IMG/VR virus record: IMGVR_UViG_3300032249_001461
Coordinates: 1-64,000 of that record
Direction: 5' to 3' (one strand)
DNA from: a virus
Length of the DNA stretch: 64,000 bases
Below the pieces are notes generated by a model that was not told where the DNA came from, ran no database searches, and saw only the letters and a list, made by a program, of their open reading frames with translations. The stretch's first letter is position 1. Every line of letters begins with the position of its first letter. Positions 8,033-45,982 of this stretch are shown one piece after another. The position numbers and the translations under genes were made by a program.

Positions 8033-10531
8033 ATGGCCTGGTGGGATTTTTACAAGCTTTGGACCTATCAGTTCGAGAAGGGTCCCATAGAGAGAATGGA
8101 CACCGCGCAGGTGACTGGCGCGGGTGTCGTCGTGCCAGACGCCATGCCCGACCTGAGGGGCGATTCCTACGGGGCGTCCCAGTCCCAGCTGAGGCTCTAC
8201 GACAGCAACGACTTCATAGACCTCAGCACGGTCACCAACCGCCAGAGCAGGTACAAGGAGTACGAGAGGCTCAGGAGCGTGGCGGAGGTCGAGATGGCGA
8301 TGACCGTGATCGCGGACGAGGCCTGCATATCCGGCGACACGAGGATATCCACCCTCTTCGACGGGCCGAGGACGATACGCTGGCTCGCCGATAGATGGGA
8401 GAAGGATCCAAGTCCCTTCCTCGTCTACTGCTGGGACTTCGACAAGGAGGACTACACGCTCGGATGGGCATACGACCCGAGGGTCGTCAAGAAGTCCAAG
8501 ACAATAAAGGTACTGCTCGACAACGGCGACAGCTTCGTGGTCACACCCGACCACAGGATTCTCACGAGGGATCAGGAGTGGGTGAATGCCGAGGACCTCG
8601 AGGAGGGCAGCGAGCTCATGCCCTTCTACAGGATGGAGCCGAACAGGAAGATCAACGGATGCAGGACGAGGATGTTCCCGAGGATATTCACGTTCGACGG
8701 CTGGAAGCACGAGAGGCAGTTCATAGAGGAGTGGAGGGACGAGAAGAACAGGAAGAAGTACGAGAAGGTCCGCGAGGCCTCCAGGCTCATCGCCGCCGGA
8801 GCCACGACCCGCGACATAGAAGGCATCATGAAGAACTCGTGGAAGAGCGTGGACTCGTGGATCAAGAAGGAGGGCTTCTGCCACGGCGAGATCAAGTGGC
8901 TCGGGGGGATGAAGGACAGGCGGAAGGTCATGGGCATCATCCCAGGCACGGAGATAGAGGTCTTCGACCTGAGCGTCAAGGGCCACGAGAACTTCTGCAC
9001 GGACTCCGTCGTGATGCACAACTGCCAGAGGAACGAAAACGGAAACGTGATGAAGATACACTGCGAGAACACGCAGGTGAAGAAGGAACTGGAGTTCCTG
9101 TGCTTCAACAGGAACATGCTCAACCTGAACAGGAAGGCGTGGCAGATGGTCAAGAAGCTCGTCATATTCGGCGACGGCTTCTACGAGCTCGTCACCGACC
9201 CAACCAACCCCAAGGAGGGAGTCCTCAAGATACAGGAGCTCCCGCCCGACAGCATCTACAAGATCATCACCACGAAGGGGAGGGTGGTGGAGTTCCAGCA
9301 GAGCAAGGAGGGCCCCGACTACCAGGCGCTGACAAGGAGCGAAGTCACCAAGGCGACAGACCTTGAGTTGATGCAATCCACCTCCATCAGGTTTGCTCCG
9401 AGCCAGGTGGTCCACATGTACATCGGCGACGACAGGAGGACCTTCTATCCGTACGGCCAGTCTCTGATGGAGCCGGCAAGGGGACCGGCGCACCAATTAA
9501 GATTGATGGAAGATGCGATGATGGTGTACCGCCTCACAAGAAGCCCCGAAAGGCGCGTCTTCTATATCGACGTCGGACAGCTCCCCCCTTTCAAGGCGGA
9601 GGCCTTCGTGGAGAGGATGAAGGACCAGTTCAGGAAGAAGAAGGTGGGATCCGGCAGGGGAACAGGGGCGAACGCAGTAGAGGAGAGATGGCACGCCCCC
9701 GCCGCCGACGAGGACTACTGGATTCCGATACGCCCCAGTGCGAACACGAGGATAGAGACGCTTCCGGGCGCCCAGAACCTCGGCGAGATAGACGACGCCC
9801 TGTACTTCAGAAACAAGCTCTTCACGGCCCTCAACTTCCCCAAGAACTACATGAGCAACGAGGACGCGGGGGCTACGAGGATCACGCTCAGCGCCCAGGA
9901 CGCCAGGTTCGCCAGGATGGTGGAGAGGATACAGGCCAGCATCGAGGACGGAATCCTGGAGATCTGCGAGCGGCACCTCGAGATGAGGGGCTTCCCGAGC
10001 GACGCCTACGAGGACCTCAAGGTGGAGATGACGCCGCCGAGCAGCTGGAAGGAGCTGAGCGAGGCCGAGATCATGAGCAACAGGATCAACGTGGCCACCA
10101 CGCTGAAGTCAAGCATGCTCATGGGAGACTTCGACCTGCTCACGAAGTTCATGAGGTTCTCCGAGGATGAGGCGGAGAGGATCATATCGCGGAACAAGAT
10201 TCAGAAGCTTGAGGACCTCAAGATACAGATAATAGGTCAGAATCCGCAGCTCCTCGGCGTCGGGACGCCATCTAGCGATTCTGGCGGGCCGGAAATGGGG
10301 GCCGAGGCGGGCGGGCCGACGCCGAACCTGGAGGCCGGAATGGGAGGGGAACAGCCCCCCGCCGACGGACAGCAAGACGAGGCTCCGGCAGAGCCTCGGG
10401 AAAAGGAAACAGGGGAGCCCACGGCCCTCCCCGATCCCACCGAGGATGAGATCAAAAAATACAACCTCGGACTAGAGGACTACACAAAGACCATTGACGA
10501 CGAGGACGTTGACTGGAGCGAGGAGGGCTAG
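8033..10531 (+). CDS. gp20: T4 gp20-like portal protein containing an intein
   Basis: QLRLMEDAMMVYRLTRSPERRVFYIDVG, EDYWIP, TRIETLPG and YFRNKLF motifs of gp20. Confidence 0.95.
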   Translation: MAWWDFYKLWTYQFEKGPIERMDTAQVTGAGVVVPDAMPDLRGDSYGASQSQLRLYDSNDFIDLSTVTNRQSRYKEYERLRSVAEVEMAMTVIADEACISGDTRISTLFDGPRTIRWLADRWEKDPSPFLVYCWDFDKEDYTLGWAYDPRVVKKSKTIKVLLDNGDSFVVTPDHRILTRDQEWVNAEDLEEGSELMPFYRMEPNRKINGCRTRMFPRIFTFDGWKHERQFIEEWRDEKNRKKYEKVREASRLIAAGATTRDIEGIMKNSWKSVDSWIKKEGFCHGEIKWLGGMKDRRKVMGIIPGTEIEVFDLSVKGHENFCTDSVVMHNCQRNENGNVMKIHCENTQVKKELEFLCFNRNMLNLNRKAWQMVKKLVIFGDGFYELVTDPTNPKEGVLKIQELPPDSIYKIITTKGRVVEFQQSKEGPDYQALTRSEVTKATDLELMQSTSIRFAPSQVVHMYIGDDRRTFYPYGQSLMEPARGPAHQLRLMEDAMMVYRLTRSPERRVFYIDVGQLPPFKAEAFVERMKDQFRKKKVGSGRGTGANAVEERWHAPAADEDYWIPIRPSANTRIETLPGAQNLGEIDDALYFRNKLFTALNFPKNYMSNEDAGATRITLSAQDARFARMVERIQASIEDGILEICERHLEMRGFPSDAYEDLKVEMTPPSSWKELSEAEIMSNRINVATTLKSSMLMGDFDLLTKFMRFSEDEAERIISRNKIQKLEDLKIQIIGQNPQLLGVGTPSSDSGGPEMGAEAGGPTPNLEAGMGGEQPPADGQQDEAPAEPREKETGEPTALPDPTEDEIKKYNLGLEDYTKTIDDEDVDWSEEG
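8324..9022 (+). mobile_element. Intein (233 aa) in portal
   Basis: DEA|CISGDT start, TPDH block B, VFDLSVKGHENF block F, VMHN|C end. Confidence 0.93.
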
Positions 10532-13222: not shown

Positions 13223-15016
13223 ATGAAAAGAAAACTCATCGGCTACGATGCATTCAACAAAATAAAGACCGAATCGCTTTCCAACGTGCAGGGGGAGCTG
13301 GAAGGCGCGGCCGACCTGCTCGCGAGAACCCTTGAGCTCGAGGGTCTGTCCCTCGTCTCCTACGGCTCGCAGGAAGCCCTTTTCGAGTCCGCGGACGGCA
13401 CTCACGTCCACGCCAACTACGAGGTGAAGAACGGCTTCGTGCAGTTCGACCAGGTAGAGCAGCTCGTCATCAACGAGGAGTCCGAGGTCGCCGCATCGAA
13501 GGAAGTCATATCCAGAATGATCGACTCGCTCATAGAGTCCGACGAGGGCAAGGCCGACGAGCTCTTCGCGGAGTGGATGGGCCTCCCCAGGACCAAGAGG
13601 GTCTTCACGGAGATGAAGAAGCTCCGCGTCGTCCCGATCCGCAAGAAGGTCGGCGGAAAGACCAAGATCGTCGGATACCGCAAGGCCCGCTGGAACGTGA
13701 CCCCCAAGAGCCACGAGAGCGCGAGCAAGACGGCCAGAAGGGTCAGGGGCAAGAAGGTCGCCCAGAGGAAGCTCCCCGAGGGCCTCAGGAAGTTCCTCGC
13801 CCAGAGGCGCGAGAGGGTTAAGAAGACCATCGGCGAGTGGCACGTCATCGCGGAGAACGTCCTCGGATACATGGATATCGCCGAAAACGGCCCCGCAGTA
13901 GACCAGTGCCAGGTCCTCAGGCATGAGGGCGAGGTAGTGGGCGTGAGAGTCCCGACCGCCAAGCTCCGCAACGAGGCCAGGGTGCTCAAGTTCAACTGGA
14001 AGACCCTCAACACCGACGTCGTCGTGAAGAGGAATGCCAGCAAGAAGATCAGCGAGAACCAGGATTTCACCAGGGAGATCGCCGAACTCAAGAGATTCAA
14101 CGCCCTCTCGGACAGCCAGGCCGTGGATGAGTCCATAGAGAAGATATCAACAAAGCACCCCGAGGTGATCTATCTGACCGAGGCGGAGCTCTCCAGACAG
14201 ATCAAGAGGTGCCTCGAGAGCGTCAGCGCAACCAACTACGACGACGAGACATGCCGCTTCCTCGCGGAAGGAATACTCCGCACAGCCCACGAGAACCTCG
14301 TCGACAGAGTGTCGAAGGTCGTGAAGCTCGCCGGAGCCAGGATCAACGAACAGGCCGCCGACAAGTACGCGGAGTTCAAGAACGTCGCGGAAGCCTTCTA
14401 TAAGAAGCTCGACGAAAGCACCATGTTGGAGATGCAGGCCTTCGTGGACGTCTACGAGGCCCTCAGGCAGATCCACGAGATGTCCGTCGAAGAAAAGAAC
14501 GAGATCGTCGCAGACGAGACCGCGGAACACCTCGACGCACTGCTCCCCATCGTCAGGAACGAGTCGGAGCCTTCTCTTGACGTCCTCGCAGACGCGGCCG
14601 AATGGCTCTACGACGTGGTCGAAGCCACCGCACCCGAGGAGTGGAAGACAGATGAGCCGGTCGTAAGCGACAACGGCGAACATCCCGTCCTGCTCAAGAA
14701 GGGCAAGCAGACCCAGTACGACGCGGAAAAGCCGGGCCAGACGCCCGCTGCCCACCACACAAGCGACGGCAAGGAATATGCCGGAGCCGCAGCCAAGGAG
14801 CTGGAGGGAGAGGGATGGGGCAACATCGGAGGCGATGGGGTCTACCCCGAAATGGACAACCCCTACGTACTCAAGGGAGGGGAATACAAGATCGCCGGAG
14901 AAAAGGACGTGGACTCGGACACCGACCAGCTCGCCCATTGGGGCGACAACGACACGTGGCCGAACCTGCAGAACCCCTACTCTAAGGCCAGCGTCACACC
15001 CACGGAAGCCAAATAA
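13223..15016 (+). CDS. Probable prohead core protein
   Basis: 597 aa, immediately upstream of gp21; acidic with a central Lys/Arg-rich block reminiscent of gp68; AGGAG SD. Confidence 0.6.
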   Translation: MKRKLIGYDAFNKIKTESLSNVQGELEGAADLLARTLELEGLSLVSYGSQEALFESADGTHVHANYEVKNGFVQFDQVEQLVINEESEVAASKEVISRMIDSLIESDEGKADELFAEWMGLPRTKRVFTEMKKLRVVPIRKKVGGKTKIVGYRKARWNVTPKSHESASKTARRVRGKKVAQRKLPEGLRKFLAQRRERVKKTIGEWHVIAENVLGYMDIAENGPAVDQCQVLRHEGEVVGVRVPTAKLRNEARVLKFNWKTLNTDVVVKRNASKKISENQDFTREIAELKRFNALSDSQAVDESIEKISTKHPEVIYLTEAELSRQIKRCLESVSATNYDDETCRFLAEGILRTAHENLVDRVSKVVKLAGARINEQAADKYAEFKNVAEAFYKKLDESTMLEMQAFVDVYEALRQIHEMSVEEKNEIVADETAEHLDALLPIVRNESEPSLDVLADAAEWLYDVVEATAPEEWKTDEPVVSDNGEHPVLLKKGKQTQYDAEKPGQTPAAHHTSDGKEYAGAAAKELEGEGWGNIGGDGVYPEMDNPYVLKGGEYKIAGEKDVDSDTDQLAHWGDNDTWPNLQNPYSKASVTPTEAK

Positions 15017-15030
15017 ACAGGAGGTGAATT

Positions 15031-15753
15031 GTGCATCTGCTATTGGAACACGAGATGATTCCAGGGACGGTATACGAAAACAGGCTGATCCTCGGAGGGG
15101 GCAACTGCGCCATCCTCAATGAAATGAACCTCCAAGAGACCGCGGGCTCCACAGGATCCCTCGTCAAGTTCAGGGGCAAGTTCCAGGAGGCGGACGCCAT
15201 CAACAAGAACAAGAGAACCTATCCCTACGAAATCCTGAACGAGAACGTCAAGGCTCTCAAGGAATCCATAGACAACGGCGGACTCATCGGCGAACTAGAC
15301 CACCCCACCGACAGCATCGTCCACTTCGCCAACGCCAGCCACAAGATCACCAAACTCTGGTGGGAGGGCAAGACCCTCATGGGCGAAGGCCTCATACTCA
15401 ACACACCCCACGGCAAGATCCTCAAGGCGCTCATCAACGACGGCGTCCGAGTGGGAATCAGCAGCCGCGGAGTCGGCAACGGAAAGGTGAACGAACAGGG
15501 AATACTCGTCATCGGAGAGAGCTACAAACTCATAACCTTCGACGCAGTCGCAGACCCAAGCACCTCGCAGGCCTACCAGGAGAAGGTTGTCTCCAAGGAA
15601 AGCGTGAGCCACGTTTCTCTTCCACAAACAGCACACGCAACTGCAAAAAATGAAAACAGCGGCATACATACTCTGACCAAAGAGCTTGTTATCGCCGCTC
15701 TCGGTGGAATTGTTCAGAAACAAGCCAAAGAAATTAAAGAGAGGTTGAACTAA
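15031..15753 (+). CDS. gp21: T4 gp21-like prohead protease
   Basis: NKNKRTYP, GELDHP, GISSRGVG and FDAVADPS motifs. Confidence 0.95.
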   Translation: MHLLLEHEMIPGTVYENRLILGGGNCAILNEMNLQETAGSTGSLVKFRGKFQEADAINKNKRTYPYEILNENVKALKESIDNGGLIGELDHPTDSIVHFANASHKITKLWWEGKTLMGEGLILNTPHGKILKALINDGVRVGISSRGVGNGKVNEQGILVIGESYKLITFDAVADPSTSQAYQEKVVSKESVSHVSLPQTAHATAKNENSGIHTLTKELVIAALGGIVQKQAKEIKERLN

Positions 15754-16667
15754 TGGAAAAAATCGTCGAAGCTTTGACAAAGTTGCTGCCCGAGGATTCC
15801 GTCGCGGACGTCACGGAAGCGGTCAAGACCGAACTGGAAAATGCAAAGCAGGCCTACGAGCAGGAATTCAGCTCGAAGCTTGAAGAGGCCTACTCCGAAC
15901 TCTCCGAGGAACTCAAGACCGCCGAAGAGACGGCCATACAGGGCTACAAGGAAGCCTATGCCATCATCCAGGATCTCCGCGCCAGACTCGGAACCCAGCA
16001 GAAGGAGTTCGAGCTCGGAATGGAAGAGGGCTACGAAGAGGCCTACCAGATGCTCGTCGCAGAAAAGAAGAAGAACGAGAATCTAGAAGTCGAAATGTAC
16101 GACCAGTTCAACACCAAGCTACACGAGATGAAGGAGTACATGGTCGACAAGGTCGACGCCTTCCTCCAGTACAAGAGCAACGAACTATACGAGTCGGCCC
16201 GCCACGAAGTTGAGAACGACCCCCGCACTGCGGAACACAAGGTCGCACTCGACCGAGTCCTGGAGTGCGTCGCCGACTACGTCGGTGACGAGAGCTTCAC
16301 GTCAGCCACCAACGCCAAGGTTGAAGAGGCCACACGCAAGGCAGGCGAACTCAAGAGCCAGATCAAGATCCTGGAAGCCAGGAACATCAGACTCAGCGCA
16401 GAAAACACCAAGCTTACCGAGGCAGTCCGCGAGACCCAGAAGGTCATAACGGAGTCGGCCAAGGAAGAAAAGAAAGAAAGAGTTGAAAAGGCAAAGAATG
16501 TGCAGGGGAGAGGACGTGCTGTCAACGACTCTGAGCTTGTTGCCGAATGGAGTGACAATAAGTCCGAAGAAAAGAAGTCAAATGTTGACAAAACTTTGGT
16601 CGAAAACCTTGATCCGGACCTGCTTCGTCAAATGCAGGTTCTTGCCGGAACCAAGAACAACGACTGA
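15753..16667 (+). CDS. gp22: gp22-like scaffold protein
   Basis: Acidic coiled-coil between protease and major capsid; contains DKVDAFL. Confidence 0.8.
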   Translation: MEKIVEALTKLLPEDSVADVTEAVKTELENAKQAYEQEFSSKLEEAYSELSEELKTAEETAIQGYKEAYAIIQDLRARLGTQQKEFELGMEEGYEEAYQMLVAEKKKNENLEVEMYDQFNTKLHEMKEYMVDKVDAFLQYKSNELYESARHEVENDPRTAEHKVALDRVLECVADYVGDESFTSATNAKVEEATRKAGELKSQIKILEARNIRLSAENTKLTEAVRETQKVITESAKEEKKERVEKAKNVQGRGRAVNDSELVAEWSDNKSEEKKSNVDKTLVENLDPDLLRQMQVLAGTKNND

Positions 16668-19785: not shown

Positions 19786-21183
19786 CTACTTCAGAATCAA
19801 CTCCAAATAATTCTTAACCGCCTCTACGGCCTCGTTCGGTGCGACATCAAACCATTCTCCGTTCAAATGACGCTTGGCGAAATGTCTGTGCATTAGTCGC
19901 TCAAAGGAAGTCATGTTTTCACACTTAAATTTAGCCACCATTTTGAGTTTTCTAGGGTTTCCAGTTTGAAGCGCGGGCATTCTTTTTGAAGGCGAATTGG
20001 ATAATCCTATTTTTGTTGGGCCGCTTTCTTGATTTTCACAAATAACATATACAAAACCTTTGTTTTTACACTCGGCTCCGCCAATTTTTGTTTTTCTTAT
20101 TGATCTCGGATTGATTGAAAACCCCATAAACTTTGAATAGTTAGAAAGCAATTTATTTACTCCTCCGCTTGTCAGAGGTCCTCGTATGCCTATAAAAACT
20201 TTGTCACTTAAAGTCGGGGGTCGGACATCAAGCCAAGCGGCAAGTGCCCGAGAAGATTCAGAATTGAGTGCAACTATGTTGGCACCTTTTTTGTTGCAAA
20301 AGACAATCTTGATCAGGCCGCTGGAGACATCCAAGTCTGACAATTTCAATTCTACTAATTCGCTTGAGAGGCATCCTGTGTCAATAAGCACATGGAAAAT
20401 CGCACTGCTCCTCGTGTCTCCACGAGCCTTTGCCTCAAGAAGCAATTTGTTTATTTCTTCTTTGTCAAGTAATTTTGGCTTGATCTTTGTCCTTCCCCTC
20501 ATCTCCTTCACGAACTTTGCAGGATTAGAATTCAATTCACCTTTCTCCACAAGCCAATTAAAAAACTTACGAACTAAAACCACATTTCTGTTGACTGTAG
20601 AGTATGACAACCCAGATTGTCCGATTGAAAAAACTTGAAAATCTACAAAATCTTGTGTGACAATGTCTTTTGAGGAAAATGATTTATATTTGTGTTTATT
20701 TATCCAAATCATAAATCTGCGTAGGTCTTTGTGAATTGCCCTAGTTGTACTATCTTTGATGTTTTGTTCTTCGATAAACTGGGCGAATAGTATTTTTTCT
20801 TGATCGCCACAATTTACTCCTTTAAATGTTTTTGTGACCATTTCAGATTTGCTGATTTTCTTTCTTTCTGCGGGCAAACGAGGTTGTAAATTGAGGGGTG
20901 GAAGTTTGGGTTTGCCGGATATTTTGACATTCTTTTTTTTGTGTCTGCCTGCCCTGAAGAATATGATCTGACCGTTGATTCCGACATTGTTGTGGTGAAC
21001 ATATAGAATAATTTTCTGTTGTTCTCGGGTGAAGTAAGGCCTTCCTTTCTCGTCTCTATTTGGCAAAGGAAAAATGGTTCCAACAAGCTCGTTGAATCTC
21101 GTTCGGCTCATGCCGATCATCTTGGCCGCCCCGGATATTGATACGAAATCTCGCAATTCGTCCATGTTCATGAATTCTTTCAA
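19786..21183 (-). CDS. HTH + degenerate tyrosine-recombinase + GIY-YIG (T5orf172-like) fusion
   Basis: STVNR..VRKFFNWL...NP (integrase SAM-like domain), TGCLSSEL, PRSIRK, then GFVYVI..KIGLS...LQTGNP...GEWF. Confidence 0.75.
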   Translation of the reverse strand: MKEFMNMDELRDFVSISGAAKMIGMSRTRFNELVGTIFPLPNRDEKGRPYFTREQQKIILYVHHNNVGINGQIIFFRAGRHKKKNVKISGKPKLPPLNLQPRLPAERKKISKSEMVTKTFKGVNCGDQEKILFAQFIEEQNIKDSTTRAIHKDLRRFMIWINKHKYKSFSSKDIVTQDFVDFQVFSIGQSGLSYSTVNRNVVLVRKFFNWLVEKGELNSNPAKFVKEMRGRTKIKPKLLDKEEINKLLLEAKARGDTRSSAIFHVLIDTGCLSSELVELKLSDLDVSSGLIKIVFCNKKGANIVALNSESSRALAAWLDVRPPTLSDKVFIGIRGPLTSGGVNKLLSNYSKFMGFSINPRSIRKTKIGGAECKNKGFVYVICENQESGPTKIGLSNSPSKRMPALQTGNPRKLKMVAKFKCENMTSFERLMHRHFAKRHLNGEWFDVAPNEAVEAVKNYLELILK

Positions 21184-28494: not shown

Positions 28495-29469
28495 TCAGAG
28501 TATCTGTCTGTTTATTTCTTCTGTGATTGCCTTTATTAAGGGAATTCCCACGGAATTTCCTACTTGTCTGTAGGCGTTCCCCTTGTTCGGGCTGATTTTG
28601 AATTTCTTCGGGAAACCCTGGAGCGAGTAGCATTCCCTGATCGTGAGTTTTCTGACCTTTGCTCCGTCGTATATCCAGAATCTGCCCGCGGTTTCCTGGG
28701 ATGAGAGCGTGGGGTGCGTCCCCGAGACGTGGTAGATCCTGTTGGGCTGTTTGTGGACTCTGGAGAGGTGTTCCGTATTCGGTCTTACTCCGCTCTTCCT
28801 GGAGGGCTTGTTCCTGTATCCGGCGAAGATGAGTCCCGATTTCTGTCTCTTGAGGAGACCTTCTTCGAGGATTGTGTAGGTTGACGGATCAAGCGATTCA
28901 GATGTTTCGTTTTCTAGGATGTCTTTGATGTTCTTTTTTTTGAACTTCTTCTTTTTCACCGGGGTGAAGTCAAATGGCTTGTCTTTGGAGGCTACGATGA
29001 TCGTTCTTTCCCTGTTCTGGGCGAGTCCGAAGTCCGCCGTGTTCAGAACCTCGTGGGAGAAGTGGTATCCTTGTTCTTCTAGCGAACTTTTGATCACCTC
29101 CAGGGTTCTTCCCTTGTCGTGGTGCACTAGGTTCTTTACATTTTCCAGAAAGACAACCTTCGGCTTTTTGGCCTTGGCTATTCTGAGGACATCAAAGAAC
29201 AGGGTGCCTCGGGTATCCTCGAATCCTCTTTTGTTTCCCGCGATGCTGAATGCTTGGCACGGGAATCCGCCCGCAAGGACATCGTGGTCGGGGATGCTGT
29301 TTTCGTCGGCTTGTTTTATGTCCCCCGCCGGATCGTCGCCGAAATTGGCCTTGTAGACCTCCCTGCACGATGGGTTCAGTTCCGAGGAGTAGACGCATTT
29401 TCCGCCCGAGGAATCCAACGCGATCCTGAATCCGCCTATCCCCGCAAAAAGGTCAATGTACTTGAACAT
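28495..29469 (-). CDS. dcm: DNA cytosine-5 methyltransferase (orphan)
   Basis: DLFAGIGG, GFPCQAFS, ENV, QNRER and QVGNSV. Confidence 0.95.
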   Translation of the reverse strand: MFKYIDLFAGIGGFRIALDSSGGKCVYSSELNPSCREVYKANFGDDPAGDIKQADENSIPDHDVLAGGFPCQAFSIAGNKRGFEDTRGTLFFDVLRIAKAKKPKVVFLENVKNLVHHDKGRTLEVIKSSLEEQGYHFSHEVLNTADFGLAQNRERTIIVASKDKPFDFTPVKKKKFKKKNIKDILENETSESLDPSTYTILEEGLLKRQKSGLIFAGYRNKPSRKSGVRPNTEHLSRVHKQPNRIYHVSGTHPTLSSQETAGRFWIYDGAKVRKLTIRECYSLQGFPKKFKISPNKGNAYRQVGNSVGIPLIKAITEEINRQIL

Positions 29470-37923: not shown

Positions 37924-38196
37924 ATGTTTAGCTTCCGTGAATTCCGCGAGAAAAAGGACGAAACCAAGGCCCTGGAAGTCGTAATGAAGGGCATGAACCT
38001 TCAGAGCGACGGCGATTTCTGGGACGGTTTCTTGAGCCTTTGCGGCAACGCAGACGGAATGGCATTGCTCCTCGATGTGCCCAGAGAAAAGGTGACCGCG
38101 TTGGCGGGCAGGATCGGAAGGCTCAAGGGGATGGTCGGCGATGACGACAACCAAGCAACGAAGGACAGACTAATAAAAACTGGGGGAGATGTATGA
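37924..38196 (+). CDS. Leader-bearing small protein
   Basis: MFSFREF; TAGATA 5 nt upstream; first gene of an ATGA-coupled operon. Confidence 0.75.
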   Translation: MFSFREFREKKDETKALEVVMKGMNLQSDGDFWDGFLSLCGNADGMALLLDVPREKVTALAGRIGRLKGMVGDDDNQATKDRLIKTGGDV

Positions 38197-38528
38197 AGAG
38201 CATAAGAGAGTGGAGGGAGGAGAATGGGATGAATGAGGCTTCGGGGATGGCGGGATCCAATCCATTCAGCAATGCGGCATTCCGCAACGTGATGGGCGGA
38301 GGAGAAGTAGACCCCGCGATCAAGCTCAAGCTCAGGTCGCGCATTTTGGATTTGGTAAAGGAATTCCCGGAGATGGGACAGGCTCAACTATTCCAGTCCA
38401 TCATGTCGGTCGTCGGTCAGATTCTGACGCATGGTTCTGGAAGCAAGGTTTCTGCGGGGAATCTTTACGGCAAACTCAACAACGGCGCGCCACAAGGCCA
38501 GCCGAACAATCAGGAGGCAATGAAATGA
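38193..38528 (+). CDS. Leader-bearing small protein
   Basis: MKSIREW...MNE; paralog of the next gene. Confidence 0.75.
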   Translation: MKSIREWREENGMNEASGMAGSNPFSNAAFRNVMGGGEVDPAIKLKLRSRILDLVKEFPEMGQAQLFQSIMSVVGQILTHGSGSKVSAGNLYGKLNNGAPQGQPNNQEAMK

Positions 38529-38863
38529 AATCGATAAGAGAATGGATGAAGGAGAGGGGAATCGTCAGCGAGGACATGAACAAGATGGCCTTTTCCAGGT
38601 TCATGCGCGATCCGGGCGACGCGGGGACTACGATGGAATTGGACACTTCGTTGAAGTCCAAGCTTAATCCTGTGATAGATCGCATCATGAAGATGGAGGA
38701 GTTTGCGGACGAGGATCCCGAGACCCTCCTCAGGCAGATCATGGCGGTCGTTTCCGCGAGGCTCGCGGGCATGTCGGGCAGCACGCTGTCGACGAGCAGG
38801 GTCGTTGACAAGATGAACAGGCTCGGAAACAACGACGAGCCGATAGCCCGAGAGGTTGGATGA
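38525..38863 (+). CDS. Leader-bearing small protein
   Basis: MKSIREWM...VSE. Confidence 0.75.
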   Translation: MKSIREWMKERGIVSEDMNKMAFSRFMRDPGDAGTTMELDTSLKSKLNPVIDRIMKMEEFADEDPETLLRQIMAVVSARLAGMSGSTLSTSRVVDKMNRLGNNDEPIAREVG

Positions 38864-39159
38864 TACCTTCTTTCCTTTCTTGGATGGAGAGCGACGAGGT
38901 CTCCCCCCTCACGGAGCCCCAGCACAAGCGTGGCGAGGGCGGGATGAGGCTTGATGCCATAGTTGAACGCCGTATGAAGCAGATCATCATGGATTTGGAA
39001 AGTTCGGGCAAGGGCACGCAAGAGGAGATTCTCGCCGCGGTGCAGAAGTACCTTTCTACGAAGGGAGTGAAGGGCAACCAGGCTCCACAGCAACAGAACC
39101 AGCAGGCACAGGAGCCGGCCCCCAACCAGCAGGCCCAGTCGGGAGACGCGGTAATATGA
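38860..39159 (+). CDS. Leader-bearing small protein
   Basis: MIPSFLSWME. Confidence 0.7.
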   Translation: MIPSFLSWMESDEVSPLTEPQHKRGEGGMRLDAIVERRMKQIIMDLESSGKGTQEEILAAVQKYLSTKGVKGNQAPQQQNQQAQEPAPNQQAQSGDAVI

Positions 39160-39491
39160 AGAAGTTTTCGCAGTGGATGGAAGAAAACCACGGCAGGGAC
39201 GAAAAATGGCTCGGCCAGGAGAGGGCGAGGCTCATGAAATGGCCCCGCGAAGACCTAATAGCCTGGCTCAGGTGGAACGACCCCAACGGCTCCTTTACCG
39301 ACGAGGACGCCGAAGCCGAGGGCATGGATCCCTTGGACGTCGAAGGCGCCGTAGAAATCATCATGCAGCACGTTGAGGAGAACCTCGAGACCCCCGAGGA
39401 GATGAGGGCGGCCTCGTCGAGACAGGCCTATCGCCAGCCCGCCATGCCCCTGGCTTGGGATGCGAAGGGGCTTATGTCCCGTTCCCGCTGA
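39156..39491 (+). CDS. Leader-bearing small protein
   Basis: MKKFSQWMEE. Confidence 0.7.
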   Translation: MKKFSQWMEENHGRDEKWLGQERARLMKWPREDLIAWLRWNDPNGSFTDEDAEAEGMDPLDVEGAVEIIMQHVEENLETPEEMRAASSRQAYRQPAMPLAWDAKGLMSRSR

Positions 39492-41994: not shown

Positions 41995-42558
41995 ATGACA
42001 CACATGATCAATCCGAAGATAACGCCCTCCCAGAGATTTCTCATAATAGGAACCATCCTTGGGGGGAGCTCTATAATCAAGCCCACGAAGGGCAAGAACT
42101 GCTATATGTCCATGAGGGAAAAGGACTTTTCCTGGCTCAAATTCAAGGCGGAGCAACTGAAGGATCTTACCTCGCAGTCTCCAATGACCATTGAGAAGAC
42201 GAACAGGTGGCATTCCGTGTGCTATCCGCTGTTCAACGAATACCACGCGATGTTCTACGAGGGAAAGGAGAGGGTGATCCGCACGGAAGCATTGAACCTG
42301 CTGCACGACTCCAGCATAGCCATATGGTTCGGCGACGCGGGAAAGTGCAAAGGCGACAGCGTGATAATCAACACCAACATATGGGGCAAGAAGGGAACGG
42401 ATGCGATAATCGAGTACTTCCGCAGCCTGGACTGGCAGTGCGACATTGTCATGGAAAGGAAAAACTACAGAATCGGACTGGACAGGGATTCTTCGAAGGA
42501 ATTTCTCAAAATGGTTTCCTCGTATCTTCCAAAGGACAGGAAATGTGGAAGAGACTAG
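41995..42558 (+). CDS. LAGLIDADG_2-like endonuclease with degenerate motifs
   Basis: IIGTILGGSSI and IAIWFGDAG. Confidence 0.7.
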   Translation: MTHMINPKITPSQRFLIIGTILGGSSIIKPTKGKNCYMSMREKDFSWLKFKAEQLKDLTSQSPMTIEKTNRWHSVCYPLFNEYHAMFYEGKERVIRTEALNLLHDSSIAIWFGDAGKCKGDSVIINTNIWGKKGTDAIIEYFRSLDWQCDIVMERKNYRIGLDRDSSKEFLKMVSSYLPKDRKCGRD

Positions 42559-43025
42559 GCAAGGACGGATCCAGGTGCTGGGGGTCTAGGGGAGCCGGCA
42601 TTTTCTTCACCGACGGCCGCAAGGTTCTCTTGCTCAAGAGAAGCGAGAAGGGGGACGGGTTCGGAACATGGGGGCTTCCCGGAGGCAAGGTCGAGGAAGG
42701 GGAGACCGACATAGACGCCGCGATGCGAGAGGCCAAGGAGGAGTGCGGAAGGGTTGCGGGTCAGAGGTTCGGCGACCTTCGGGAAAAGGACGGCATGCAC
42801 GAGTGGACGACCTTCTTATTCAGGGTTGACAAGCCATTCAAGTGCAGGCTCAGTGATGAGCACAGCGACTGGAAATGGGTCAAATTCAAATCTCTGGACG
42901 ATTACGAGCTGCACCCAAAACTGAAGGAGAATCTGGACAGGCATCTGAAGGCGGTGAAAAAGTCCGCGGGGAAAGGAGTCATTAAATTCAGAGAATGGCT
43001 TGAATTCAGATGCGATAGACGCTGA
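42543..43025 (+). CDS. NUDIX hydrolase
   Basis: GGKVEEGETDIDAAMREAKEECG Nudix box; C-terminal IKFREWLE. Confidence 0.9.
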   Translation: MWKRLGKDGSRCWGSRGAGIFFTDGRKVLLLKRSEKGDGFGTWGLPGGKVEEGETDIDAAMREAKEECGRVAGQRFGDLREKDGMHEWTTFLFRVDKPFKCRLSDEHSDWKWVKFKSLDDYELHPKLKENLDRHLKAVKKSAGKGVIKFREWLEFRCDRR

Positions 43026-43054: not shown

Positions 43055-43492
43055 TCAGTCCCTCACTATCGTTACGCCCGACATCGGATCTTCGGTAAGG
43101 AGCCTTTCCTTTTCTGTCCCGTTGGGATCCGCCTCGTTGAGGGGGAGATCTTCCAGAACCTTGTGCTCCACTTTGCCCGTCTTCGTTACCTGTTCGGGCT
43201 GATCCAGTATCAACTTGTTTTCCACTTTTTCCTCCTTATTTTCTTCGGCCAGGGTTCTTACCAGAACGGCCTCCCTCGGAACCATGGAAAGGAAATAGCT
43301 GTCGCCCTCCCAAGTGCCGTTGGGCTCGATCCACCTCTTTCCGTCCTTTGATGCCTTCGGAAGTTCAAGCGAGGCAGAGGCATTTCTGTTCCTGAAGAGG
43401 TAGAGTCCAGTTCCCTTCTGGTAGTAGTCCAGAGTCTGCTTCTTCTGCTGTGTTCTTTCCAGCCTGCCGACCTTCTTGCTGGTTCTTTTCAT
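43055..43492 (-). CDS. Hypothetical protein
   Basis: 145 aa ORF; AAGG upstream. Confidence 0.65.
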   Translation of the reverse strand: MKRTSKKVGRLERTQQKKQTLDYYQKGTGLYLFRNRNASASLELPKASKDGKRWIEPNGTWEGDSYFLSMVPREAVLVRTLAEENKEEKVENKLILDQPEQVTKTGKVEHKVLEDLPLNEADPNGTEKERLLTEDPMSGVTIVRD

Positions 43493-43610
43493 GTTTGCCT
43501 TTTAATTTGTGTCCAGACGATATATTAGAGTAGTTAGGAGAGAAAATGTCGAAAATTAAGCCCAAAAAGCGGACGGACATTGAATCAGGGAAGTTTCTAA
43601 AAGTTGATCC

Positions 43611-45617
43611 TTACTGTTGATTTTTTCTAATCATGCCCGCGAGTGGCGGAGGCCTTGATGAATCAAATTTGGGTTCAACGTAGGTTTTTGACGGGAACAT
43701 CTTGGACAACTCCTGACACAGGAATTTCAGTCCCTTGTCAACCCATGAAATTATCGTGGCCTTCTCGTTCGATCCGAGTTCAAAGGACCGTCCCAACTTA
43801 CTCAAAAGAGCTTCTGCAACTTCATCATTGCTCAGTCCTATGACATTCAGTTGGCTCTTGCAGTCCGTTTTTTCTCCTCCTCTGATTTCACCCGTGGAAG
43901 TCCTTTGTATCACTGCATCCAGGAATTTATCTGGGGACATGACTCTTCCGTAAGCGTCGCAATTGAGTCCAAACTTTAGACACACCGCAATCGCCCATTT
44001 TGGATTGCGGCTTTTCAGCCTTGACAATGCCAGTGCGAGTTTTTTGATAAGTTCGCTTCTTTCGTTTCCTGCCATTACTTCGCCGGCGGGCGTGGAGCTT
44101 CTCCTTGATATTCCAGAGTCCGAATCGCCTTGCGCCCCCCTGCCGTATGCTCTTTCGTCGTCGGTGGGCGAGGCGGCGTCCCAAGATGATCCGTCGTCCT
44201 TGGACCCCATCACGCTCATGAAGCTCGGGCCTGATTTTGACCTTTTCAGGAAGTAGGTCCTGTAGTTCTGGAGCGTGGCTATCATCTTGTCGGGATCTAG
44301 AGATAGTATGGCTGGGTTTCTTGGTGCCTTGGAAAATACGTCTTTTATTATCTCAAACCTGAACCTTTCTTTTTCGGGCATGCTTTCAGGAGCGTATTCG
44401 CCTTCTTTTCCACCCTTGAATTTGTTCAAATAGTCTATGTATGATTCAAGACTTGTGGGAGTCTTTCCTTCCGCCTGATCCTTCAGAGCTTCTTTGACGT
44501 CAACATTGATTCTGCTGCTCTTCTTGTCCCTGTTGGAGTATTCGTCCCTTGTCCCCTTGCTCGGGGATAGCGCTATTCTCCTTTCATCCTCGGCCTTGGC
44601 GGGCTCCTTGTAAAGCAGTCTCTTGAAGTGATCTAGGATTTCGTCTACGAAATCGTCGTCTTCAAGTTCGTTGGATGAGGTGCCGAATTTGCTCTTGTCA
44701 CTCCTCAATCCGCCCCAAGGACTGAGTCCCCCTCGTCTTCTAGGTCTTTTTGAAACCTTGTCCATCATTCTCAGGATGAACTTGTTGGCGAGTTCCTCGG
44801 CGTCATACAGCTTCATTCCGTAGCCTCCGGCTCCAGTGTTCCTGCTGGATCGTGCCAAATACGAGTACTGCTGGGCGAACACCGAGTACAGAATTGTAAA
44901 AAAATCTTTCCTGGCTCTGGTGATGTTCTTCTTCACTTGCTCGTCAGTGATGCCAGCGGGTATTTCATTGCCCGATTCCTCGGCGGCGTCGTAGAAGGCC
45001 TTTTCCAACATAGAATCTATCTGCTCCCTGCTATACTCGGGGCTTCCTTCCTTGGTGCGCGAGGACATGAGCTCTTCCACATCAATATAGCCGAGATTCT
45101 TTAGAATGGGGATCGCATCTTCCATTTTGAAGTCGTCTTCCATCACATCCTGAAGGGAGATGTCGTCGTCTTCGCCGCCGTCTTGTTCGGAATCCCGACC
45201 GTATCCTGGGTCGCTTTTCATCCTCATGGCCTGGATCTGTCGGACGGCCTCCCTTCTCTTGAGCATTCCATCCCATCTCATCCACAAGGCCGCGTCTTTT
45301 AGTGCTTTTGCGGCCTCCCGTTCGGAAGTGATAACCTTGCCGTCTTCAAGACGTATTTTCATCTTGGATTCTGGCTCGTTGTTGTCCCGCTCCTGCTCCT
45401 GTTCCTGGCTGGAGTTCACCGGCTTTGCGTCCTCCGAGCCGGAGAAGGGGTCGTCCAGTTCGGCGGGAGTTCCTTCGTCATCCTCATCCTCCATGGATTC
45501 AAGAAAAAACCGGGCCGTCTTTCTGACTGCCATTTCCGCGATTGTCTCGTTCAGGGCGGGTTCGTAGACCTCCGTCCTAATTCTGTCGAGTTCCAGCCAC
45601 TCTTTGAGACAAAGCAT
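43611..45617 (-). CDS. Leader-bearing protein with sigma70 region 2- and region 4-like segments
   Basis: YDAEELANKFILRMM; LALALSRL...AVCLKFGL...LSNDEVAEAL...TIISWVDKGLKFL. Confidence 0.55.
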   Translation of the reverse strand: MLCLKEWLELDRIRTEVYEPALNETIAEMAVRKTARFFLESMEDEDDEGTPAELDDPFSGSEDAKPVNSSQEQEQERDNNEPESKMKIRLEDGKVITSEREAAKALKDAALWMRWDGMLKRREAVRQIQAMRMKSDPGYGRDSEQDGGEDDDISLQDVMEDDFKMEDAIPILKNLGYIDVEELMSSRTKEGSPEYSREQIDSMLEKAFYDAAEESGNEIPAGITDEQVKKNITRARKDFFTILYSVFAQQYSYLARSSRNTGAGGYGMKLYDAEELANKFILRMMDKVSKRPRRRGGLSPWGGLRSDKSKFGTSSNELEDDDFVDEILDHFKRLLYKEPAKAEDERRIALSPSKGTRDEYSNRDKKSSRINVDVKEALKDQAEGKTPTSLESYIDYLNKFKGGKEGEYAPESMPEKERFRFEIIKDVFSKAPRNPAILSLDPDKMIATLQNYRTYFLKRSKSGPSFMSVMGSKDDGSSWDAASPTDDERAYGRGAQGDSDSGISRRSSTPAGEVMAGNERSELIKKLALALSRLKSRNPKWAIAVCLKFGLNCDAYGRVMSPDKFLDAVIQRTSTGEIRGGEKTDCKSQLNVIGLSNDEVAEALLSKLGRSFELGSNEKATIISWVDKGLKFLCQELSKMFPSKTYVEPKFDSSRPPPLAGMIRKNQQ

Positions 45618-45715
45618 TTTTAGAATCCCCTTTTAATTAGCATTGAACTATATATGTCTTAAGAAAAACATTCCGAAGCAACTATATAATCCGAGCCCCT
45701 TTTTTGGAGATAGAT

Positions 45716-45982
45716 ATGAAATCATTTTTGGACTGGTTGAAAGAGGAAAGGCTGGAGCTCCCGACCTTCACGGACGCGGGCGAAGCGGAAGGAAATGTTG
45801 ATGCTCCCGCCGGGAAGAAGACTGTGGAGGAGAAGACGAAGAGAACCGGACTTAGCGCCAACTATCCTCCGGCCTATGTTTCGGGCCAGTACCCGCACAA
45901 GTATTTCAATCCCTCCAAGGCTACGGCTGACCTCGACATAAAGAACATCGAGGACAAGAACGTCGTAACCCCCGAGGAGTAG
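45716..45982 (+). CDS. Leader-bearing small protein
   Basis: MKSFLDWLKEE; TATATA box and GGAG SD. Confidence 0.75.
   Translation: MKSFLDWLKEERLELPTFTDAGEAEGNVDAPAGKKTVEEKTKRTGLSANYPPAYVSGQYPHKYFNPSKATADLDIKNIEDKNVVTPEE

Follow-up and report, generated by a model that had tools for sequence, protein, structure and literature searches.

The stretch of DNA analysed here, a window of 64 kb, is the first part of a 99,934-bp IMG/VR viral contig (IMGVR_UViG_3300032249_001461) with a CheckV completeness of about 20%. On the minus strand of this window, positions 43611-45617 (stop codon included) hold an open reading frame (ORF) for a protein of 668 aa that starts with MLCLKEWLELD, and a Shine-Dalgarno sequence (SD; GGGGA, 45626-45630) lies 8 nt 5' of its ATG. 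The original prediction had described this protein as a giant, diverged sigma70-like factor that carries a capsid-targeting-like leader and is made late and delivered by the virion. The ORF, its MLCLKEWLE leader, the acidic N-terminus and an upstream TATATA box are all present. The word "giant" applies in comparison with phage sigmas, which the protein far exceeds (one on the same contig has 176 aa), but its size is near that of the 613-aa RpoD ORF of Escherichia coli. Judged by its predicted fold, the protein probably belongs to the sigma-70 family. Its segments, with the gene itself, are as follows:

43611-45617, minus strand: sigma-like gene
45588-45617, minus strand: N-terminal leader MLCLKEWLEL (residues 1-10), like a capsid targeting sequence (CTS)
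45489-45617, minus strand: N-terminal helix (residues 1-43; modelled as helical over 4-43), whose identity of 0.84 between close homologs is the second highest of all segments
45324-45488, minus strand: acidic linker (residues 44-98), predicted to be disordered (predicted local distance difference test, pLDDT, <50), net charge -12, with an invariant DDPF
45213-45323, minus strand: long helix at the position of region 1.2 (residues 99-135), matched by fold, without sequence-level signal
44946-45212, minus strand: acidic insertion (residues 136-224) that corresponds in position to the non-conserved region of primary sigmas, with invariant LxxLGY and AxxExGNxxP
44568-44945, minus strand: predicted sigma2 core (residues 225-350), regions 2.1-2.4 by fold, with a hairpin and loop inserted at 291-323
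44241-44567, minus strand: helical middle domain (residues 351-459) at the sigma3 position, without a sigma3 match
44094-44240, minus strand: acidic linker (residues 460-508), positioned like the sigma 3.2 linker, predicted to be disordered (pLDDT 25-40), identity 0.72 among close homologs
43695-44093, minus strand: predicted sigma4 domain (residues 509-641), by fold and hhalign, with an insertion of about 42 residues at 553-594 (nt 43836-43961)
43614-43694, minus strand: C-terminal tail (residues 642-668) with the conserved end SPLAGMM(R/K)RxQG

The whole protein was modelled with AlphaFold2, with 20 close homologs as input. The resulting model is all-helical (mean pLDDT 67) and consists of confident blocks between the disordered acidic linkers. 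In an unbiased VIA search of this model against 48,161 representative PDB chains, the best 30 chains were all sigma domains. The sigma4 domain of SigL (3hug_A) was placed on residues 509-643 (Z 7.1, root-mean-square deviation (rmsd) 2.9 Å, 79/80 aligned), and region 4 of SigmaE (2h27_D) was aligned to the sigma4 part over 69/69 residues. The sigma2 domain of SigC (2o7g_B) fell within residues 98-347 (Z 6.4, rmsd 2.9 Å, 88/89 aligned) and domain 2 of SigA (4x8k_A) was aligned to the sigma2 part with 117/122 residues. Sigma2 (98-350) precedes sigma4 (509-643) in a single chain, with a linker. No sigma3 fold match for residues 351-459 was returned by the whole-model search, and its row 40 was the anti-anti-sigma domain of PhyR.

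Residues 85-350 were also refolded alone with 56 sequences, giving a pLDDT of 92 and a predicted template modelling score of 0.86. When the 48,161 chains were searched with this domain model, the top 19 rows were all sigma2 domains. SigC was again aligned almost completely (Z 6.6, rmsd 2.8, 88/89 aligned), as was domain 2 of SigA (117/122), an RpoS fragment comprising part of region 1.2 and region 2 was aligned with 95/96 residues to domain-model positions 2-262, and sigma2 domains of the extracytoplasmic function type aligned whole to positions 141-266. The rows that followed include T4 gp55 (7d7d_F, Z 5.1) and a phage gp79-dependent complex. A chain of the AR9 holoenzyme entry, 7s01_A, which we take to be the AR9 promoter-specificity subunit, was matched as well (Z 4.9, 117 residues aligned).

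With Foldseek, no row at E<=0.001 was obtained against the PDB, either with the whole model or with that of residues 85-350, or against BFVD; sigmaA chains ranked first in the whole-model search of the PDB, at E of about 1. After re-ranking of the Foldseek list by VIA-align, sigma-factor chains occupied 35 of the first 36 rows, and whole sigmaA chains were collinear with model residues 85-642. The sole row not assigned to a sigma factor, 9n9q_C at rank 26, comes from an RNA-guided transcription complex. Of the structural comparison with sigma domains that had been suggested, the Foldseek part was not significant, and it was the VIA search of 48,161 chains that returned sigma2 and sigma4. For a predicted model of this kind, the weight of the structural evidence lies in how specific the matches are, in the order of the domains and in the almost full coverage of the target domains, and not in the scores. 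The sigma-like reading is upheld to this extent: the predicted fold matches sigma2 and sigma4 specifically, in the correct order and with large insertions. Both stretches quoted earlier as sigma-like lie inside the fold-assigned domains, the region-2-like one (residues ~234-288, nt ~44754-44918) in sigma2 and the region-4-like one (residues ~522-640) in sigma4.

A second line of evidence comes from profile comparisons restricted to regions. The family alignment was cut into segments, which were compared by hhalign with segments of an alignment of the six E. coli sigmas in about 37 comparisons; the insertion limits were chosen from the structure model. Once residues 553-594 were left out, the sigma4 segment matched E. 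coli region 4 with P 1.2e-5 over 60 columns, covering regions 4.1 and 4.2 in the canonical register, and with the insertion kept it still matched across region 4.2 (P 5e-4). Of E. coli region 2, the sigma2 core matched region 2.2 only, with its residues 265-292 (P 0.0084). For the cross comparisons and the control segments (the N-terminus, the insertion, the middle domain and the region-1.2-like helix) P was >=0.038, in most cases >=0.09, and none of them aligned more than 40 columns; neither sigma3 (residues 351-459) nor region 1.2 gave a profile signal against the E. coli segments. Among 100 column permutations none reached the observed score, for sigma4 (29.2 against a permutation maximum of 15.5) or for sigma2 (16.9 against 12.9), and reversed alignments scored about 11. 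The sigma4 signal holds after correction for the ~37 comparisons. That of region 2.2, taken alone, fails or is marginal after multiple-test correction, and it coincides with the position given by the fold. At the level of profiles, then, sigma4 is supported and, of the other sigma regions, region 2.2 only weakly.

Conventional searches had given no such indication. With the 668-aa protein as query, Pfam returned nothing even at E<=10 and PHROGs a single chance-level match that was not relevant. The PDB sequences, searched with the protein and with the family profile, held no relevant match; the best row, a 31-residue stretch of Csm5 (E 0.85), was dismissed as chance. A full-length hhalign comparison with the six E. 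coli sigmas did not reach significance, as it aligned the region 4.1 helix only, at E 0.22, and a search of the contig for Sigma70_r4 gave no match at E<=10. No relatives of the protein were found in the phage collection, by DNA or by tblastn, or in IMG/VR. Large protein collections hold about 66, down to ~20% identity and all unnamed, some of them on contigs of up to 471 kb. When 56 relatives were scanned singly with Pfam, no sigma family was obtained at E<=1, and only scattered zinc-ribbon and helix-turn-helix matches appeared. The nearest named cluster in the ESM Atlas is a viral Sigma70_r2 cluster, with only 132 features in common, which we treat as a lead only. Since CheckV gives a completeness of ~20% and relatives occur on contigs of up to 471 kb, the virus is probably a phage of roughly 500 kb.

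Conservation among close homologs is highest (0.91) in residues 324-350, the helix at the position of regions 2.3-2.4. The N-terminal helix follows, and region 2.2 comes next with 0.75. R291 and W301, in the hairpin and loop 291-323 of sigma2, are invariant, as are P51, D56, P57 and F58 in the N-terminal acidic linker. The insertion ahead of sigma2 carries a net charge of -14 in residues 136-196. No YxxWW-like aromatic cluster of region 2.3 is evident in the sequence. The recognition helix of sigma4 contains few basic residues and has, at 0.46, one of the lowest conservation values of all segments. By its position, the acidic linker of residues 460-508 may be functionally analogous to the sigma 3.2 linker. 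Four of the five cysteines (546, 553, 586 and 634) lie in sigma4 and its insertion, and 36 of the 56 family members have all four, a pattern suggestive of a Cys4 metal site or a redox switch.

In four metagenomic loci the gene order is identical. The sigma-like protein is only 57-68% identical between these relatives. Most flanking genes reach 82-95%, and the ORF next to it on the downstream side (43055-43492) reaches 75-78%. Its divergence extends beyond the linkers, for sigma4 diverges as well. The sigma-like gene evolves unusually fast in comparison with its flanks.

The N-terminal leader is not confined to this protein. Leaders and promoter boxes were counted in a greedy set of 126 ORFs of the contig. 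Of these 126 genes, 7 have a strict version of the motif, [FL]x[DE]W[LMR] with its start among residues 1-11, where the internal frequency of the motif would predict 0.19; a loose form is found in 19 genes, for an expectation of 2.3. Two further leader genes are masked by mis-called starts. The codons of the leader differ synonymously and its register shifts by one residue, which indicates that the constraint acts on the protein. A cause at the nucleotide level, such as a constraint on leaderless mRNAs, was rejected on the same grounds. Within the family, all full-length members retain MxxF[KRS][EDN]WL, even at 20-30% identity, and W7 and L8 are conserved at >=80% across the 56 members. Most members have F4, W7 and L8; the protein studied here has L4, W7, L8, E9 and D11.

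The CTS of phage T4 is MKTYQEFIAE (Mullaney and Black 1996, as reviewed in PMC9026906), in which residues 4 and 7 are needed for targeting and 8 and 10 for processing (PMC9026906). The consensus of the leaders on the contig, M-K-x-F-x-E-W-L-x-E, has residues of the same kind at all four positions. MKGFGEWLAE, from another gene of the contig, fits the T4 pattern exactly, and the sigma-like protein fits it at positions 7 and 8. The contig also has T4-type head genes (Portal_T4, 1.8e-76; Gp23 capsid protein, 1e-84), with a head maturation protease (gp21-type, phrog_207, 8e-50) directly 5' of a gp22-like ORF, and one leader-bearing gene lies directly after the portal, within this head-gene module. 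What stands of the proposed capsid-targeting-like leader is a recurrent motif at the protein level that is similar to the T4 CTS, and the phage that carries it has head genes of the T4 type; the fit of the protein itself is restricted to positions 7 and 8. By analogy with T4, we consider the chances to be about even that the leader is, in general, a capsid targeting tag. Residues 1-43 contain three (L/I)-x-E triplets, LKE6, LNE24 and IAE28, which are candidate sites for protease cleavage; LNE24 and IAE28 could be the real ones.

Leader-like sequences and leader-bearing proteins were also noted elsewhere. A 597-aa protein of the head module (13223-15016, plus strand) has a single internal LFAEWMG, and the gp22-like scaffold (15753-16667, plus strand) has LVAEWSD near its C-terminus; these might, as a weak possibility, be docking partners or self-like motifs for the leader. 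Five tandem small ORFs of 90-112 aa (37924-39491, plus strand) carry the leaders MFSFREF, MKSIREW (twice), MIPSFLSWME and MKKFSQWMEE, and are loosely like the small CTS-bearing internal proteins of T4, although most are acidic. A NUDIX hydrolase (42324-43025, plus strand) ends in the leader-like VIKFREWLEFRCDRR, perhaps a tag placed at the C-terminus; in T4, both ends of Alt undergo processing. A leader-bearing 196-aa protein (contig 95680-96270, minus strand) has a weak match to VLTF3, a poxvirus late transcription factor, at an E of 2.4e-4 that is below the cut-off, and may be a second tagged transcription-related protein. The T4-type portal gene (8033-10531, plus strand) contains an intein splicing domain at residues 153-330.

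The surroundings of the sigma-like gene have the following features, the last line giving further examples of the promoter-like box in the window:

45649-45654, minus strand: TATATA promoter-like box, 31 nt 5' of the ATG of the sigma-like gene
45683-45688, no strand assigned: second, palindromic TATATA box, 27 nt 5' of the divergent gene
45716-45982, plus strand: divergent 88-aa gene, start MKSFLDWLKEE (the same leader), 92-95% identical in relatives
43560-43574, minus strand: hairpin, weak and terminator-like, 37 nt 3' of the stop codon, a consensus match only
10724, 21263, 29507, 37913 and 59469: examples of TA(N)ATA 4-5 nt 5' of an ATG

The 98-bp intergenic region between the sigma-like gene and the divergent gene has two palindromic TATATA boxes at a suitable distance for each gene, and both are kept in the four metagenomic relatives. 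The longer word TATATAGTT has 3 copies in the window, where 0.07 would be expected, and 2 of them lie in this intergenic region. It was rejected as a general promoter word because of these 3 copies only, the recurrent box being the shorter TA(N)ATA. TA(N)ATA lies <=70 nt upstream of 41 of the 126 genes (about 6 expected), with preferred distances to the ATG of 4-5 nt (leaderless) and of 17-34 nt with an SD, and neither a flanking consensus nor a -35 element was found around it. In 14 genes the box stands 4-5 nt 5' of the ATG without an SD, which suggests that their mRNAs are leaderless, and 6 of these 14 have the protein leader. The box is also found 5' of a methylase-like ORF, a phosphoesterase-like ORF and the portal gene. 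As non-structural genes have it too, the box is no proof that the sigma-like gene is expressed late.

The phage has at least two sigma-like proteins. The second, a separate gp55-like late sigma of 176 aa, is encoded outside the window (contig 76178-76708, minus strand; Sigma70_r2 6.8e-7, phrog_234 3e-7) and lacks the leader; its presence makes a T4-like class of -10-only late promoters plausible. No beta or beta-prime domain of RNA polymerase was detected on the 99.9-kb contig, which is about 20% of the genome. The contig is in agreement with a published pattern, in which jumbo phages with a gp23-type capsid that lack their own RNA polymerase genes rely on the host enzyme and typically encode sigma factors (Iyer et al. 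2021, PMC7824862).

Elsewhere in the window, ARAGORN called a tRNA with anticodon CUA at 29048-29125 (plus strand), inside the methylase-like ORF at 28495-29469 (minus strand), which starts MFKYIDLFAGIGGF. This call is probably false, and none of the ORFs examined requires recoding of stop codons. A tyrosine-recombinase-like protein fused to a T5orf172/GIY-YIG-type domain is encoded at 19786-21183 (minus strand).

As best explanation for the whole we favour, with modest confidence, a diverged member of the sigma-70 family with a capsid-targeting leader, encoded by a T4-type-headed megaphage. Its parts deserve different degrees of belief. On the basis of the modelled fold, a function as initiation factor for the host RNA polymerase is rather likely. 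In the polymerase core, sigma2 would contact the clamp helices and the flap would be bound by sigma4, and the bound protein would direct the host enzyme to phage promoters, for which the -10-only TA(N)ATA boxes are the candidate targets; this binding and redirection are proposed because of the fold and of what phage sigmas do. The leader, common to about 17-20 otherwise unrelated proteins of the phage, would dock the protein on the scaffold core of the prohead, as proposed from its sharing by unrelated proteins and from the match to the T4 CTS. After docking, copies would be packaged and cut by the gp21-type protease, and would enter the host along with the DNA. That the 668-aa protein is indeed packaged in virions and injected is a tentative proposal, drawn by analogy with T4, towards which we are somewhat doubtful. 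Our doubts are greater still for the complete scenario, in which a CTS-tagged sigma injected with the DNA reprograms the host RNA polymerase to phage promoters before any phage gene is expressed.

Several observations weigh against this explanation. Neither Pfam, PHROGs nor PDB sequences provided a match for the protein, no sigma family was found in its 56 relatives, and the full-length profile comparison with sigmas was not significant. The structure-derived choice of insertion limits constitutes a degree of freedom in the region-restricted test. VIA Z values of 5-7 are in the middling range of this tool for helical proteins, Foldseek was not significant, and no sigma3 was found by fold or by profile. 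A region-2.3-like aromatic cluster is not evident, and the recognition helix of sigma4 is variable and has few basic residues. As to the leader, that of the close family has Leu instead of an aromatic residue at position 4 and lacks Glu at position 10, and the leader proteins do not share the basic character of the T4 internal proteins. Moreover, the scaffold does not have repeats of the leader motif, and the leader of the sigma-like protein is the start of a 43-residue conserved helix, which speaks against the CTS analogy. Finally, the TA(N)ATA box is not limited to structural genes.

The most probable alternative, although we consider it unlikely, is a working phage sigma used only within the infected cell, its N-terminal motif having another role. 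Such a role could be that of a region-1.1-like autoinhibitory module with its acidic linker, or that of a tag for some other shared partner. The extent of the helix, well beyond a 10-residue tag, would be explained in this way, and an acidic segment stands next to the helix, as in primary sigmas. The motif is, moreover, on ~15% of the genes, many for packaged cargo, on proteins that are not basic, and this protein lacks the position-10 Glu that is required for T4 processing. A region 1.1 role, however, cannot account for the motif on small unrelated proteins. The unrelated proteins that share it include one encoded directly after the portal in the head module, and the T4 CTS pattern is matched in a phage that has a T4-type protease.

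The variable, weakly basic recognition helix and the lack of an evident region 2.3 cluster would also suit a sigma mimic or decoy, which shuts off host transcription without promoter recognition of its own, by sitting on the polymerase core of the host or by trapping one of its regulators. Sigma-like mimic domains exist, the PhyR domain being among the fold matches, and the rapid evolution of the gene relative to its neighbours (57-68% against mostly 82-95%) is in line with such a role. We nevertheless regard it as improbable: the most conserved segment is the helix at the position of regions 2.3-2.4, with which real sigmas read the -10 element, and the abundant -10-only boxes of the phage require a reader.

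Very improbable is a promoter-specificity subunit of a multisubunit RNA polymerase of the phage (cf. phiKZ gp68 and AR9 gp226), with the polymerase genes in the other ~80% of the genome. Such subunits resemble sigma in structure only, the AR9 chain 7s01_A, taken as that subunit, was matched with Z 4.9, and virion RNA polymerases are packaged in those phages. Against it stand the lack of beta or beta-prime domains on the 99.9-kb contig and the combination of a gp23-type head with a gp55-like sigma, tied in surveyed jumbo phages to use of the host enzyme. That the sigma likeness is a coincidence of helical packing or an artefact of the model, and the protein a head-internal or other non-transcription protein, would agree with Z <8, Foldseek E near 1 and no family match by sequence, but deserves very little credence, as each of the two domains retrieves only its own sigma domain from 48,161 chains, in the correct order and with near-full coverage, and sigma4 has an independent sequence-profile signal.

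If the favoured reading of a packaged, diverged sigma is true, it would account for the start of transcription in a giant phage that relies on the host polymerase and in which all visible promoters are -10-only. Besides virion polymerases and Alt-type modification, phages would then have a third means of bringing their own transcription start, with a sigma in the part that virion RNA polymerases play in N4 and phiKZ. The loading tag is on about 1/7 of the genes, and the proteome packaged by T4-headed megaphages would also be very large. Whether or not the protein is packaged, a function would be given to about 66 "hypothetical" proteins that standard annotation has overlooked, and a sigma architecture would be described that has unusual insertions and a possible Cys4 site in sigma4.

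Among known systems, the literature that we searched reports phage sigmas, packaged polymerases and packaged modifying enzymes, and in it we found no virion-packaged sigma factor. With regard to the tag, a close parallel is T4, in which IPI-III and Alt share a short N-terminal tag among unrelated proteins (PMC9026906), as happens on the contig. The leader is like the T4 CTS in its hydrophobic or aromatic residues at 4 and 7, the aliphatic residue at 8 and a Glu nearby, and the contig, like T4, has a gp21-type protease, a gp22-like scaffold, gp20 and gp23. Alt, moreover, is both packaged and active on the host RNA polymerase, which makes it a precedent. Unlike in T4, the candidate cargo is a sigma factor, the leader is part of a 43-residue helix, and the leader proteins are not basic and amount to ~15% of the genes.

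With regard to the sigma itself, T4 gp55 has a sigma2-type fold and -10-only promoters, as in the present phage. Proteins of the gp55 type have about 180 residues and sigma2 only, whereas the protein described here has 668 residues and sigma4 in addition, and it is the separate 176-aa protein of the contig that is gp55-like. phiKZ gp68 and AR9 gp226 are alike in that their sigma likeness is structural only and in that they belong to giant phages that package transcription machinery; they serve phage-encoded polymerases, genes for which were not seen on the 99.9-kb contig. Close to the present case are the RpoD-like sigmas of gp23-type jumbo phages without RNA polymerase genes (PMC7824862), which likewise have sigma2 and sigma4 in one chain, and of which gene 118 of phage PaBG is a diverged example of a complete phage sigma (PMC7412058). 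Those jumbo phages are also large and T4-type-headed, and have a minimal gp55-like sigma besides, as here, and the presumed role of their complete sigmas is likewise to redirect the host RNA polymerase. Phage sigmas and T4-type capsid targeting tags are each known already; what is new is a divergence beyond the reach of family models, the insertions and the CTS-like leader. Unlike the RpoD-like sigmas of jumbo phages, the protein is undetectable by Pfam and PHROGs and has an unmatched middle domain, a CTS-like leader, insertions in and before sigma2 and within sigma4, and four conserved cysteines in sigma4.

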